Below are positions 26,504 through 62,579 of a DNA stretch of 64,000 nucleotides, in pieces. Every line of letters begins with the position of its first letter. Positions within the stretch are counted from its first letter, which is position 1. The notes below the pieces were generated by a model. It was not told the DNA's origin. It saw only the letters and a list, made by a program, of their open reading frames with translations, and made no database searches. A program made the position numbers and the translations under genes. The stretch lies in assembly GCF_003790525.1 (NCBI RefSeq), contig NZ_CP033635.1; one strand, written 5' to 3'. The stretch comes from Escherichia coli. Lineage in GTDB: Bacteria > Pseudomonadota > Gammaproteobacteria > Enterobacterales > Enterobacteriaceae.

Positions 26504-26958
26504 TGGAGTTAATGGTCGTTCATCCACATATTTTCTGGCTCAGTCTCGGCGGGTTGCTGCTGGCAGCCGAGATGCTGGGCGGAAATGGTTATTTGTTGTG
26601 GAGCGGCGTGGCAGCGGTGATTACCGGCCTGGTGGTCTGGCTGGTGCCGCTGGGTTGGGAGTGGCAAGGGGTGATGTTTGCCATCCTGACGCTGCTCGCC
26701 GCCTGGCTGTGGTGGAAATGGTTGTCGCGGCGGGTGCGCGAACAAAAGCACAGCGACAGTCATTTAAACCAGCGCGGGCAGCAGCTGATTGGCCGACGTT
26801 TTGTGCTGGAATCTCCGCTGGTCAACGGGCGCGGTCATATGCGCGTCGGCGACAGTTCATGGCCTGTCAGCGCCAGCGAGGATCTCGGTGCAGGTACGCA
26901 TGTTGAAGTCATTGCGATAGAAGGGATAACGCTGATCATCCGTGCGGTCATCGCCTGA
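26500..26958 (+). CDS. ybbJ: NfeD-like membrane protein, partner of QmcA
   Basis: ORF track, 152 aa; 4-nt overlap with qmcA. Confidence 0.85.
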
Positions 26959-27045
26959 TGCGACGCTGACGCGTCTTATCATGCCTACAAAATATGCCCG
27001 AATCGTAGGCCAGATAAGGCGCTTGCGCCGCATCCGGCATATAGC
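26954..27045. repeat. REP/BIME element at the left edge of the accessory insert
   Basis: GCCTGATGCGACGCTGACGCGTCTTATCATGCCTAC ... GTAGGCCAGATAAGGCGC...CGCATCCGGC motifs. Confidence 0.8.
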
Positions 27046-27060
27046 CGAGTAGAGGCAAAA

Positions 27061-27423
27061 TTACTCTTCCCGGCCTTTACCCATACTTTTTTGGTCTTCA
27101 TCCGGATAGTGTTTTTTTAGATATTCCAGGACGTTTTTATTGACCTTGTGTTGGGTATACACCCACCCTTTCCAGTAATCAGGTTGGTCCAGGTAAACTT
27201 CTGGCGGAATGGTGAAATCAGAAAGCGTTAACCATTCGGCTAACAGATCGGGGTTTCGTTTCTGGATCAACTGCAACAGCATGATCAGCGACATGGCAGA
27301 GGCAGGAGCCGTACTATCGCCGCTTAAATACTTCCACACTGTCGACCGGTTCGAACGAAAAAGGATCGGTAGCAATGCCCGGTCCAGATTCATTTCATTA
27401 AAAATCTTCTCAAATTCATTCAT
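27061..27423 (-). CDS. Hypothetical protein, 120 aa, no signal peptide; function unknown
   Basis: ORF track; not recognised; divergent from the adhesin gene across an AT-rich intergenic region; not present at this position in my recollection of K-12. Confidence 0.5.
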   Translation of the reverse strand: MNEFEKIFNEMNLDRALLPILFRSNRSTVWKYLSGDSTAPASAMSLIMLLQLIQKRNPDLLAEWLTLSDFTIPPEVYLDQPDYWKGWVYTQHKVNKNVLEYLKKHYPDEDQKSMGKGREE

Positions 27424-27788
27424 TTAAATTTCCTGCCTGGCGTAAACCTCTTAAAAATTGAGATTTATCAAAGAAACGCATTTTAGCACACATCAGGAAC
27501 CGCTTCACGTTTAGTCCAGAAACAGAATTTATTTCGCTTATCAAAACAAGTCTTTACTCTTTTTTACATTGAAAGAGCACGAAATAATTTCCTTTTTTAT
27601 TTATATAAGAAACTATTTTTGTTCCTTATTGGTGGTGTTTACGCTTACACAAGACAAAAATGCGCTTTACATCACACAAATGGCGGCGTAGATTTCGATC
27701 AAATTGCAACGCAGTTTATTTCTTAAAACAATATTATTTGTTTCTTATAGAAACATTAATGCGACTTATTTTGAACAAGAGAAAATGA

Positions 27789-28805
27789 ATGAAAACTGTA
27801 AACGTAGCTTTACTGGCACTCATAATTTCAGCAATATCCAGCCCTGTTGTTTTAGCTGGTGATACCATTGAAGCGGCGGCAACAGAGCTTTCAGCCATTA
27901 ACTCTGGCATGTCGCAATCGGAGATTGAGCAGAAGATTACCCGCTTTTTAGAACGCACAGACAACAGCCCCGCTGCGTATACCTATTTGACTGAACATCA
28001 CTACATCCCTTCTGAAACACCTGATACCACTCAGACTCCCACTGTCCAGACAGATCCTGACGCAGGACAAAAAACCGTTGCCGCTACAGGTGATGTACAG
28101 ACAACCGCCCGTTATCAGAGCATGATCAACGCCCGACAGTCTGCGGTAACTGATGCCCAGCAAACGCAAATTACAGAGCAACAGGCGCAGATCGTAGCCA
28201 CACAAAAAACGCTCGCCGCGACTGGAGATACGCAAAATACCGCGCATTATCAGGAGATGATTAATGCCAGACTGGCGGCTCAAAATGAGGCTAATCAGCG
28301 CACTACCACGGAACAAGGGCAGAAAATGAATGCACTGACAACCGATGTGGCAGCACAACAGCAAAAAGAAAGGGCTCAATACGATAAACAAATGCAAAGT
28401 CTGGCGCAGAAGTCTGTCCAGGCACATGAGCAAATTGAAAGTCTGAGACAAGATTCCGCACAAACGCAGCAACAGTTAACCAACACGCAAAAACGGGTCG
28501 CAGATAACAGCCAACAAATTAACACGCTCAATAACCATTTCGATTCTCTGAAAAACGAAGTTGAGGACAATCGTAAAGAAGCCAATGCGGGAACTGCATC
28601 TGCCATTGCTATCGCCTCACAACCACAGGTGAAAACCGGTGACGTGATGATGGTGTCAGCGGGAGCGGGAACGTTCAACGGTGAATCTGCGGTGTCTGTA
28701 GGAACATCTTTTAATGCCGGAACGCATACGGTACTTAAAGCAGGTATTTCTGCGGATACACAATCTGATTTCGGTGCGGGTGTCGGCGTGGGATATTCGT
28801 TCTAA
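27789..28805 (+). CDS. Miniature trimeric autotransporter adhesin-like protein: signal peptide, Gln-rich coiled-coil stalk, YadA-type C-terminal beta-barrel anchor
   Basis: ORF track, 338 aa; N-terminal signal-like MKTVNVALLALIISAISSPVVLAG; stalk-anchor junction KEANAGTASAIAIASQPQ; anchor GDVMMVSAGAGTFNGESAVSVGTSF...VLKAGIS...GAGVGVGYSF with terminal aromatic; purine-rich RBS-like AAGAGA upstream. Confidence 0.8.
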   Translation: MKTVNVALLALIISAISSPVVLAGDTIEAAATELSAINSGMSQSEIEQKITRFLERTDNSPAAYTYLTEHHYIPSETPDTTQTPTVQTDPDAGQKTVAATGDVQTTARYQSMINARQSAVTDAQQTQITEQQAQIVATQKTLAATGDTQNTAHYQEMINARLAAQNEANQRTTTEQGQKMNALTTDVAAQQQKERAQYDKQMQSLAQKSVQAHEQIESLRQDSAQTQQQLTNTQKRVADNSQQINTLNNHFDSLKNEVEDNRKEANAGTASAIAIASQPQVKTGDVMMVSAGAGTFNGESAVSVGTSFNAGTHTVLKAGISADTQSDFGAGVGVGYSF

Positions 28806-28858: not shown

Positions 28859-29281
28859 ATGATGAATAGCTCCATTAAATCGTTTTCCCTGCTGGCGGTT
28901 ATATTACTGGCTGGCTGTAGTTCACCCACTTCCCGCATCGCAGATTGCCAGGCGCAGGGCGTCAGCCATGACACCTGTTATCTCGCAGAACAGCAGCGTC
29001 AGACGGCTATTTTAAGTGCATCCGAGGCGCAGGCATTTAAAAATGCAGAAGCCGCACAACATGCCCAGGCGGCAAAGAAAGCCATTTATAAAGGATTTGG
29101 CATGACCTTTAGAATGAGCAGTAAGAACTTTGCTTATCTCAATGATTCATTATGTGCAATTGATGAAGACAATAAAGATGCCACTGTTTATCAGTCAGGT
29201 CTTTATAACGTCATTGTTTATCACCACACGGGAAAAGTCGCCTTAATGAAGGAAGGTCAGTTTGTGGGTTATTTAAAATGA
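28859..29281 (+). CDS. Putative lipoprotein, 140 aa
   Basis: ORF track; signal peptide with lipobox LLAGC (Cys20); immediately downstream of the adhesin gene. Confidence 0.6.
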   Translation: MMNSSIKSFSLLAVILLAGCSSPTSRIADCQAQGVSHDTCYLAEQQRQTAILSASEAQAFKNAEAAQHAQAAKKAIYKGFGMTFRMSSKNFAYLNDSLCAIDEDNKDATVYQSGLYNVIVYHHTGKVALMKEGQFVGYLK

Positions 29282-29481
29282 AGGAGCAAAGGAAAATCCC
29301 CCTGACGCATATTATGATTATCGGTGCGTTTATTTTTGCCTTCTTGCAAGTGGTGTTATTAGCCTCCCTGGTTCACGCTGTGAATGTTAACAACGAAATC
29401 CAGGAAGGCTTATTTCAGTCGGGGCGCATTATGGTAGAAAGTTTGCAGCATATTCTTTCGGTGCAAACGGGGATTAACTGA
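29278..29481 (+). CDS. Putative small single-pass membrane protein, 67 aa
   Basis: ORF track; start overlaps the lipoprotein stop (ATGA); one hydrophobic helix IMIIGAFIFAFLQVVLLASLV. Confidence 0.4.
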   Translation: MKEQRKIPLTHIMIIGAFIFAFLQVVLLASLVHAVNVNNEIQEGLFQSGRIMVESLQHILSVQTGIN

Positions 29482-29484
29482 TTT

Positions 29485-29892
29485 TCACCCCGCCCGATGA
29501 TGACAGCAGCCGGAGAGATTTTCGATAATCGGGCAGTCGGCGCTGTCATCACCGGGGCAGGCATTCGCCAGCGCCAGTAGCTGGTTGCGCATGGATTGCA
29601 GTTCTTCGATATGCCGTTCGATCTCCGCTACCTTCTCCAACGTACGACGTTTGACGTCGGCACTGTGACGCTGCGGATCGTTAAACAGATTCACCAGCTC
29701 GCCGCTCTCTTCCAGGTTAAAGCCCACCTGGCGTGCCTGCCGCAGTAAGGTCAGTTCGTTGAGATGCTGCTGCGTGTAGGTTCGATAACCATTTTCGCTG
29801 CGCATCGGCGGCGTCACCAGCCCCTTCTCTTCATAGAAGCGGATTGCTTTGCTGGTCAGGCCGGTAATTTTTGCTACATCGCTAATGTTCAT
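29485..29892 (-). CDS. cueR: MerR-family copper-responsive regulator
   Basis: ORF track, 135 aa; C-terminal metal-binding CCHH; recognised CueR. Confidence 0.92.
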
Positions 29893-30016
29893 CGTTCGCG
29901 CAACGCCTCCTGTGCTTTGTTAAAGGGTTTCAACAAATATTCAAGCACGTTTTTTTGCCAGTGCGAATATCGACCGCCACCACAATAATACAGGAAGTAC
30001 TGCGCACAGAGAGGTG

Positions 30017-62076: not shown

Positions 62077-62579
62077 TGCATAACCTACGAACATTAAGGA
62101 GTCATTGAACCACCAACTCAGGATCTCATACGAAAACCAGTATTAAACACGTATAAAATTCATAAAAAATACTGATTGTTAGTTAATTTATATTAAGTAG
62201 CGCTAATAGATTTAATAATCCATAATCATTTAGAGGCTATTCTTAATTATTTGCGGTAATTCTTTATTCATTCCTCGGTTATTACGTCATATTCAGAGCA
62301 ATCCTGGTATTAGTGTTACCAATTTCATCTGGCGATAATCCTGAAATGTTATGAACAGTTCGAGCAAACTGCTTTTACCTGCTGCGGGTTAGTGCTAGTA
62401 TGAAAAAGTAAGTCCTGTCCCGCTTCCTTCCTAATTGTAATTTTTCGTAATAATGCGATGAAAACCTGCAAAGAGTGGCTTATAGTTAAGCTAACAAACG
62501 AGAGGGCAAGTCCAGGTCAGTAAGTTTTTTCCATCCCGAAAGGTGTCCGTTAGTTCAACCGCTAAGAAGGGGACGAGTT

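Follow-up and report, generated by a model that had tools for sequence, protein, structure and literature searches.

In a 64,000-nucleotide stretch of Escherichia coli DNA (contig NZ_CP033635.1; hereafter the window), a gene encoding a protein of 120 amino acids (aa) lies back to back with a gene for a YadA-family, trimeric-autotransporter-like protein, the two being separated by a spacer of 365 bp rich in adenine and thymine (AT). We propose that the 120-aa protein is a dedicated local regulator of the divergent trimeric-autotransporter operon, which would act through the AT-rich spacer and most likely repress both of its promoters; we put the probability of this reading at about 0.55. The first-pass annotation of this DNA had offered two options for the small protein, a local regulator or an unrelated cargo gene. 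The former is well supported by computation and the latter is disfavoured, because the modelled protein has an Xre-type helix-turn-helix (HTH) fold, its gene is paired with autotransporter genes at 10 of 11 informative loci, and the spacer carries conserved promoter blocks and AGAAAC sites. The genes and the spacer are as follows:

27061-27423, minus strand: gene of the 120-aa protein, orthologue of z0640/ECs0549, with an ATG start; predicted Xre/Cro-type HTH (about residues 1-57) and family-specific all-helical C-terminal half
27424-27788, no strand: divergent control region of 365 bp, AT-rich (31.2% guanine and cytosine, GC), of kept length and with invariant islands
27789-28805, plus strand: YadA-family trimeric-autotransporter-like gene, 338 aa, orthologue of z0639/ECs0548 ("gmrA"); YadA_anchor match at residues 279-338 (expect value, E, 2.6e-11)
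28859-29481, plus strand: two downstream genes, for a 140-aa lipoprotein (z0638, 28859-29281) and a 67-aa membrane protein (29278-29481)

The 120-aa protein and its partner gene across genera

The 120-aa open reading frame (ORF), which RefSeq holds as hypothetical protein WP_001001644.1, is a real, expressed gene. Its reading frame is kept in orthologues of other genera, and intergenus comparisons give a proportion of nonsynonymous differences (pN) of 0.13-0.32 with synonymous differences (pS) saturated at 0.7-0.9; the dN/dS ratio against Escherichia whittamii is 0.04. A candidate ribosome-binding site, AGGAAA, lies on the minus strand at 27429-27434. The ORF corresponds to z0640 of E. coli O157:H7, because primers in the supplement of the paper on O-island 29 (OI-29) fix the correspondence, the published z0640 deletion-arm primer mapping to 27423-27460, immediately upstream of the ORF. 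In O157:H7, z0640 is transcribed in Dulbecco's modified Eagle medium (DMEM) at 43.5 reads per kilobase per million (RPKM), which was confirmed by quantitative reverse-transcription PCR, and its transcript level varies across 49 public RNA-sequencing samples. An unconserved and untranslated ORF, the outcome that the first-pass annotation named as refuting, is therefore not what is found, given this strong purifying selection and transcription. The divergent arrangement over about 365 bp described there holds as well, the ORF occupying 27061-27423 on the minus strand and the next plus-strand gene beginning at 27789.

The fold assigned to the protein comes from structure prediction. AlphaFold run with 10 close homologues gave an unusable result (predicted local distance difference test score, pLDDT, 57), and an alignment of 24 sequences gave a confident model, in which an Xre/Cro-type HTH is joined to a family-specific helical C-terminal half. 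The HTH, a compact, lambda-repressor-like helical domain, spans approximately residues 1-57 of the model, and the remaining 60 residues or so form the second helical domain. Residues N25, R26, S27, K31 and Y32, invariant in the family, lie in or beside the model helix 26-34, which we read as the recognition helix. The C-terminal half is matched structurally only by members of its own family, namely proteins of Cronobacter, Hafnia, Pectobacterium and Ewingella that are all labelled uncharacterised; it probably mediates dimerisation, a role suggested by analogy with Aca2 and C proteins. Among the closest structural relatives of the protein are two antitoxins, MqsA and HigA2, and Aca2, which binds RNA. 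At the sequence level, the only Pfam match of the query is MqsA_antitoxin (E 0.12) and NCBIfam returns none; among 24 family members, one each matches Xre-like-HTH (7e-5), HTH_3 (4e-4), HTH_26 (5e-4) and MqsA (3e-5), and the family profile finds in the PDB a weak similarity (E 0.66) to an Xre/MbcA antitoxin HTH. On the model, the protein belongs by fold to the Xre/Cro-C1 HTH class, while by sequence it lies beyond existing profile families. The family is small and confined to Enterobacterales: it comprises 21 clusters at 90% identity in 5.8 billion proteins and 24 representatives, including a spurious repeat protein, among 1.84 billion proteins, and a narrow-alignment search recovered it in 4 of 100,044 species-representative genomes.

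The most telling aspect of the family is the company it keeps. Genomic context was viewed for 12 members, ranging from 84% to about 27% identity, of which 11 were informative, one contig being too short to judge. At 10 of these 11 loci, the lowest identity among them being 32%, the gene stands back to back with a YadA_anchor gene or the remnant of one. The ten include one locus (L007) where the homologous anchor was recognised by BLASTP (E 3e-16), and Candidatus Symbiopectobacterium, whose regulator gene adjoins a truncated stalk fragment of an autotransporter gene. In this symbiont (L005, 4881-5621), the 174-aa fragment breaks off just short of the anchor, small ORFs come next, and the regulator gene is intact, which is consistent with an autotransporter gene that is decaying while the regulator is retained. 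The pair is found at no fewer than eight (at least 8) different chromosomal positions:

ybbJ/cueR, in E. coli
qmcA/fetA
qmcA/cnoX
beside nrdB-yfaE
beside an Xre-RES pair
beside a ParE-like gene, adjoining two tandem YadA-anchor genes (L015)
beside a sucrose locus
between ribC and a major-facilitator-superfamily (MFS) gene

The length of the spacer is 356-380 bp in closer relatives and 288-408 bp in distant ones. The pairing survives repeated relocation, and it is chiefly on this ground that we argue for an action of the small protein on its neighbour. The lipoprotein and 67-aa protein equivalents also follow the autotransporter gene in other genera, and we therefore regard the four genes as a module. 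No integrase or flanking repeats were noticed around it (L002-L010, L015-L017, L022-L023), and several of its sites fall in one qmcA-ybbJ-cueR-fetAB neighbourhood across genera, resembling an insertion hotspot.

The divergent control region and its candidate operators

The strongly AT-rich character of the spacer and its many A/T tracts, remarked upon at the first pass, are confirmed: at 31.2% GC, with ten A or T tracts of at least 4 bases, it is the most AT-rich stretch of the 64 kb, and its composition is far from chance, since only 0.11% of all 365-bp segments equal it in AT content. The sole other place in the window at or below 33% GC per 365-bp segment is 62090-62503. The spacer was aligned across nine genera-level sequences and, separately, across eight Escherichia alleles; the genera-level alignment contains invariant islands amid otherwise randomised DNA. 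From upstream of the 120-aa gene towards the adhesin-like gene, the elements are:

27472-27477, plus strand: AGAAAC site 1, overlapping the predicted start of the regulator transcript; at -313 to -328 from the adhesin ATG in 9 loci
27480-27488, minus strand: predicted extended -10 element of the regulator gene, TGCTAAAAT; its TG-n-TA..AT columns are invariant in the nine genera-level sequences
27518-27523, plus strand: AGAAAC site 2, about 45-50 bp upstream of the predicted regulator start; at -267 to -282 in 8 loci and invariant in Escherichia
27553-27567, plus strand: direct repeat TTTAC-N5-TTTAC, midway between the promoters; 0-2 mismatches in 7 of the 9 genera-level sequences
27608-27626, plus strand: site pair AGAAAC (27608-27613) and GTTCCT (27621-27626), about 75-95 bp upstream of the predicted operon start
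27666-27694, plus strand: predicted sigma-70 promoter of the adhesin-like operon, TTTACA-17 bp-TAGATT, the sole promoter-like site that a scan found in the spacer
27740-27754, plus strand: perfect 6-3-6 palindrome GTTTCT-TAT-AGAAAC (GTTTCTTATAGAAAC), inside the predicted leader, 35-49 bp before the adhesin ATG

Both predicted promoters coincide with conserved DNA. The ATTTTAC core of the regulator -10 element recurs in distant loci, and the only change within Escherichia is from TAAAAT to TAGAAT; transcription of the regulator gene is predicted to start near 27473, with a leader of about 50 nt. The operon promoter coincides with the longest block that is invariant across genera (GCTTTAC.T.A.A ... 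GGCGTA.ATT), does not vary within Escherichia, and has a TTTACA-17-TACATT counterpart at the locus with tandem anchor genes (L015). The operon start is predicted near 27701, with a leader of about 88 nt. Two other readings of conserved blocks in the spacer, both made by eye, were rejected: a CRP site, the TCACA half of which is not conserved in L002-L004, and an RcsB site, the half-sites of which stand in opposite orientation.

The word AGAAAC/GTTTCT occurs 47 times in 12 spacers, compared with 3.4 copies expected from dinucleotide shuffles, and 5 of its 36 copies in the window fall within the 365-bp spacer, the densest cluster in the 64 kb. Conserved copies are found at -317, -271, about -185, -166, -84, -62 and -40 from the adhesin ATG, the last three being phased at 22 bp, and several form GTTTC(C/T)-N3-AGAAA(C) palindromes. 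The GTTCCT of the site pair reads GTTTCT in most other Escherichia alleles, and the -166 position is occupied in other genera by palindromes of the GTTTCC-N3-AGAAA type. We consider the palindrome at 27740-27754 to be the best candidate operator. Ten of 12 loci carry its AGAAAC half at -38 to -41, among them relatives whose protein identity is 43-48%; in other genera two more copies lie 22 and 44 bp upstream of this -40 site, and the two are degenerate in E. coli (GCAAC at 27706-27710, AAAAC at 27725-27729). The repeat also changes with the protein. In the most divergent subfamily (P0027), where the recognition helix reads PRNTIFNYL as opposed to NRSTVWKYL, AGAAAC is absent and RGAACA repeats are found instead, including a palindrome AGAACA-N5-TGTTCT, and at the P0024 locus GCAGAAA occurs three times.

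Taken together, these features suggest the following mechanism. The 120-aa cytoplasmic HTH protein would bind the AGAAAC/GTTTCT sites as a dimer, within a control region formed by the 365-bp spacer with one promoter in each direction and its set of sites. Counted from the predicted regulator start, the sites are at +1 and near -48, the latter upstream of the regulator -35; counted from that of the operon, the positions are about -78 and about -97, upstream of the promoter, and +4, +26 and +48, inside the leader. Repression is the most likely outcome since several of these sites sit on or downstream of the predicted start points, which are repressor positions. It can be hypothesised that both promoters are repressed, the regulator limiting its own synthesis along with the operon (z0639, z0638 and the 67-aa gene), and that both would be released together by some signal. 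Such local repression would come on top of any H-NS-type silencing to which the AT-rich DNA is subject. Small Xre-type proteins in a comparable layout, such as RsaL, C proteins, Aca proteins and antitoxins, are usually autorepressors.

Weighing repression against other explanations

The expression data are compatible with repression and are not decisive on its sign. Transcripts of regulator and operon correlate at r = 0.89 in 37 samples, both being induced in rumen content and ground beef and both off on HeLa cells. A 12-sample batch of TUV93-0 shows strong operon and weak regulator expression; with it included, the overall r drops to 0.13, and batch effects between projects may be part of the cause. 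Published work describes z0639 as expressed in lysogeny broth (LB) and DMEM, with a peak at 37 °C, a drop at 30 °C and at high osmolarity, a response to pH, and a shut-off after attachment to host cells.

Several points weigh against a dedicated repressor. The co-expression fits an activator, or a silencer shared by both genes, equally well. The published z0640 deletion, scored for motility, fliC and motA, had no effect. One relative (P0026) is an orphan between rluE and icd, with no adjoining autotransporter gene. The 120-aa query itself has no significant match in Pfam, NCBIfam, PHROGs, PADLOC or the PDB. Both start sites are predictions, and we infer repeat binding by the 120-aa protein, the direction of regulation, the start points and the involvement of H-NS. 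When spacers are taken singly, the commonest hexamer does not clearly exceed what shuffles yield (P 0.04-0.57), and we therefore place the weight on AGAAAC being the top word independently in diverged spacers, at fixed positions. The RGAACA and GCAGAAA motifs of the distant loci were picked post hoc.

The principal competitor keeps the regulator and reverses its sign, the 120-aa protein being an activator or a counter-silencer of H-NS. We hold this to be unlikely, although it is the best placed of the alternatives. The extreme AT content of the spacer would suit it, as would the predominant co-expression of regulator and operon and the dependence of z0639 on temperature and osmolarity, and the sites are spread over about 300 bp and not clustered at one promoter. 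However, the site over the predicted regulator start and the three phased sites past the predicted operon start occupy typical repressor positions, the TUV93-0 samples combine a high operon with a low regulator, and most small Xre-type proteins of such a layout repress.

Another possibility, which we regard as improbable, is that the TTTAC and GAAAC repeats are bound by a host response regulator, OmpR or CpxR. The direct repeat at 27553-27567 is the reverse complement of what we take to be the CpxR box, GTAAA-N5-GTAAA, and TTTTC-N5-GAAAC presumably resembles the OmpR sites of ompF and ompC. A role for either regulator would accord with the response of z0639 to osmolarity and pH and with its shut-off after attachment, an event that reportedly signals through NlpE-Cpx. 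Yet the repeat changes with the regulator subfamily (AGAAAC, GCAGAAA, RGAACA), which is not expected of a conserved host factor, and this co-variation with the recognition helix favours a cognate protein, with the reservation that the motifs were chosen post hoc. Moreover, the leader copies are phased at 22 bp, compared with the contiguous 20-bp units of OmpR sites, and they lie downstream of the predicted start, where activation of the OmpR type is impossible.

Considerably less credible is the proposal that the ORF is passenger cargo and the spacer simply a xenogeneic, AT-rich promoter silenced by H-NS. The composition and horizontal origin of the DNA are in its favour, and so is the absence of a phenotype of the z0640 deletion in one published test. 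It fails to account for a pair and a spacer length that are kept across genera and insertion sites despite saturated synonymous sites, for invariant blocks and positioned repeats that exceed what composition explains, or for the ready expression of z0639 in LB and DMEM. That same expression indicates that z0639 is not fully silenced. A contribution of H-NS to control at the spacer is nonetheless plausible, as it fits the composition, the island status, and the maximum of z0639 expression at 37 °C with its loss at 30 °C and high osmolarity; such temperature and osmolarity dependence is often seen for H-NS-controlled promoters. The 10-bp high-affinity motif of H-NS is not enriched in the spacer in an informative way, and the literature on OI-29 and H-NS contains general mentions, with no occupancy or hns-mutant result for the locus. 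The strains studied by chromatin affinity precipitation and sequencing of H-NS (K-12, SE11 and SE15) are without the 120-aa gene, SE15 having a frameshifted remnant only, and the locus is not listed in the preprint supplements that were searched.

Finally, a small RNA or structured leader in the spacer, or an antitoxin role for the ORF, is very hard to credit: a predicted leader of about 88 nt and structural relatives of antitoxin (MqsA, HigA2) and RNA-binding (Aca2) function are outweighed by a spacer with no Rfam match, ordinary folding and no conserved pairs, and by a monocistronic ORF that has no partner gene and no PADLOC or meaningful PHROG matches. The hidden RNA element suggested by the first-pass annotation thus finds no support: Rfam returned nothing inside 27424-27788 even at E up to 1 (the sub-threshold REP-like matches being at 26919-27075 only), the folding energy of the spacer RNA had z-scores of -0.86 to +0.60 relative to shuffles, and RNAalifold found zero conserved pairs among nine genera-level leaders. 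A toxin-antitoxin antitoxin was rejected as there is no adjacent co-transcribed toxin, the gene being flanked downstream by repetitive extragenic palindromic (REP) elements and a convergent ybbJ and upstream by the divergent adhesin gene, and the same is true in other genera. An Aca or defence-linked HTH was likewise rejected: the neighbours are housekeeping genes, PADLOC matched neither the 120-aa protein nor the lipoprotein nor the 67-aa protein, and PHROG matches were insignificant. On the adhesin-like protein, PADLOC gave weak coiled-coil matches (E 0.002-0.007).

The operon, O-island 29 and the meaning of a probable local regulator

The presumed target of the regulator is the 338-aa gene, labelled "YadA family autotransporter adhesin" by RefSeq. 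By sequence, its product has the YadA-type anchor, signal peptide and coiled-coil stalk of a trimeric autotransporter: the N-terminus, MKTVNVALLALIISAISSPVVLAG, reads on inspection as a Sec signal, and upstream of the anchor there are weak coiled-coil-type matches only, with no head domain identified. A lipoprotein that assists trimeric-autotransporter biogenesis, SadB, is known from Salmonella, and the downstream lipoprotein may be comparable. Deletion of OI-29 is reported to leave adherence unchanged. In alleles of 93% identity from E. coli M12 (L024, 2230-3728) and strain 5132 (L025), the autotransporter gene is open from the conserved ATG, and about 115 aa of its stalk are duplicated in tandem. 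For M12, RefSeq places the start 735 bp further downstream, and for 5132 it has no annotation in the stretch fetched, which looks like an annotation artefact.

The same gene has been published under another identity. The cloning primer for "gmrA" (z0639), ATGAAAACTGTAAACGTAGCTTTA, is the start of the YadA-family gene, 27789-27812, and the published "transcriptional activator GmrA" is thus the YadA-family protein, because the authors' own primer maps there. The sole DNA-related profile match of the 338-aa protein is a weak coiled-coil one, TMF_DNA_bd (E 0.079). A signal peptide-like N-terminus, a coiled-coil stalk and a YadA membrane anchor make GmrA hard to reconcile with a promoter-binding factor. 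GmrA, encoded on the same island as z0640, is the sole OI-29 product to which DNA binding has been assigned.

Around the insert, the gene order is:

fetB-fetA; qmcA-ybbJ; REP elements; 120-aa gene (minus); spacer; YadA-family gene (plus); 140-aa lipoprotein gene (plus); 67-aa membrane protein gene (plus); cueR (minus)

The insert is OI-29 of O157:H7, which measures 2,643 bp in EDL933 and holds z0638, z0639 and z0640; the counterparts in O157:H7 Sakai are ECs0546 (the lipoprotein), ECs0548 ("adhesin") and ECs0549 (the 120-aa gene). In the literature, z0640/ECs0549 of O-island 29 (S-loop 43) is a hypothetical protein of E. coli O157:H7, deletion of which does not change motility (Yang et al. 2018, PMC5826968; Ogura et al. 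2007, PMC2323221). Among 5426 complete E. coli genomes, 1415 carry the 728-bp region formed by gene and spacer, at 93-100% identity and as a single copy that is always chromosomal, which sets the frequency of the insert at about 26%. The horizontal acquisition proposed at the outset is borne out by this island status, and the DNA has the high AT content expected of such an origin: GC falls from 51.8% in the window to 44.6% in the 120-aa ORF and 31.2% in the spacer, and the module occupies other chromosomal positions in other genera.

The surroundings of the island are variable as well. Repeats of the REP or bacterial interspersed mosaic element (BIME) type at 26919-27075, seen as sub-threshold Rfam naRNA4 matches on both strands, occupy the DNA from ybbJ to the 120-aa gene and extend into the last codons of the ORF. 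The C-terminal tail of the protein varies among alleles, reading ...KSMGKGREE here and ...KNMNKGSDE in many strains, and the segment 26953-27046 of the window (positions 4-97 of a 2.55-kb query) matches thousands of places in other genomes. In SE15, the cueR-ybbJ interval (L020, 4120-4798) holds a 679-bp frameshifted "hypothetical protein" in place of the island, which may be what is left of a decayed module, with no regulator gene. The ybaT-cueR interval is a second variable site, adjoining that of O-island 29: in the window (29889-29986; L001, 5940-6037) and likewise in SE15 it contains a frameshifted gene fragment only, and in O157:H7 Sakai (L019, 19897-45161) a 25-kb island with an outer-membrane protein, two giant proteins (one of 15.9 kb), and ATP-binding-cassette (ABC) and membrane-fusion components.

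Comparison with known systems places the locus among familiar designs. RsaL of Pseudomonas aeruginosa (PDB 5j2y) has no detectable sequence relationship to the 120-aa protein. It is a small Xre-type repressor at a bidirectional promoter; compared with RsaL-type systems, the spacer here is far longer (365 bp), approximately seven dispersed sites replace one operator, and the target operon is adhesin-like. Aca2 (PDB 7vjo) superposes on the 120-aa protein with a root-mean-square deviation of 7.2 Å, and the arrangement of the two halves therefore differs, relatives that match over the full length of the structure being confined to the Enterobacterales family of the protein itself; unlike Aca2 and C proteins, z0640 has no phage, anti-CRISPR or restriction-modification context. 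The promoters of UpaG and EhaG are examples of horizontally acquired adhesin promoters silenced by H-NS. The z0640 locus resembles them in its AT-rich upstream region, strain-variable island, adhesin-type gene, and temperature- and osmolarity-dependent expression, but, unlike them, it has its own conserved HTH gene.

A local autoregulating HTH protein at a bidirectional promoter is an ordinary design, and the gene is already known by name (z0640/ECs0549), not by function. In the literature found, z0640 is studied nowhere beyond the OI-29 deletion work, and its HTH fold, family, link to the autotransporter and control region are not described; nor did we find there a named adhesin at ybbJ-cueR or Xre-type regulators of trimeric autotransporters. 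The novelty lies in the family, in its tight link to short trimeric-autotransporter operons throughout Enterobacterales, in a conserved control region and in a candidate operator word. About one quarter of sequenced E. coli carry the island concerned, among them O157:H7 and O55:H7 strains as well as neonatal-meningitis, avian and other extraintestinal pathogens, and the island has been tied to motility through "GmrA". The gene z0640 defines a small protein family, as yet without a Pfam or NCBIfam model, for which AGAAAC is a candidate operator word that is directly testable.
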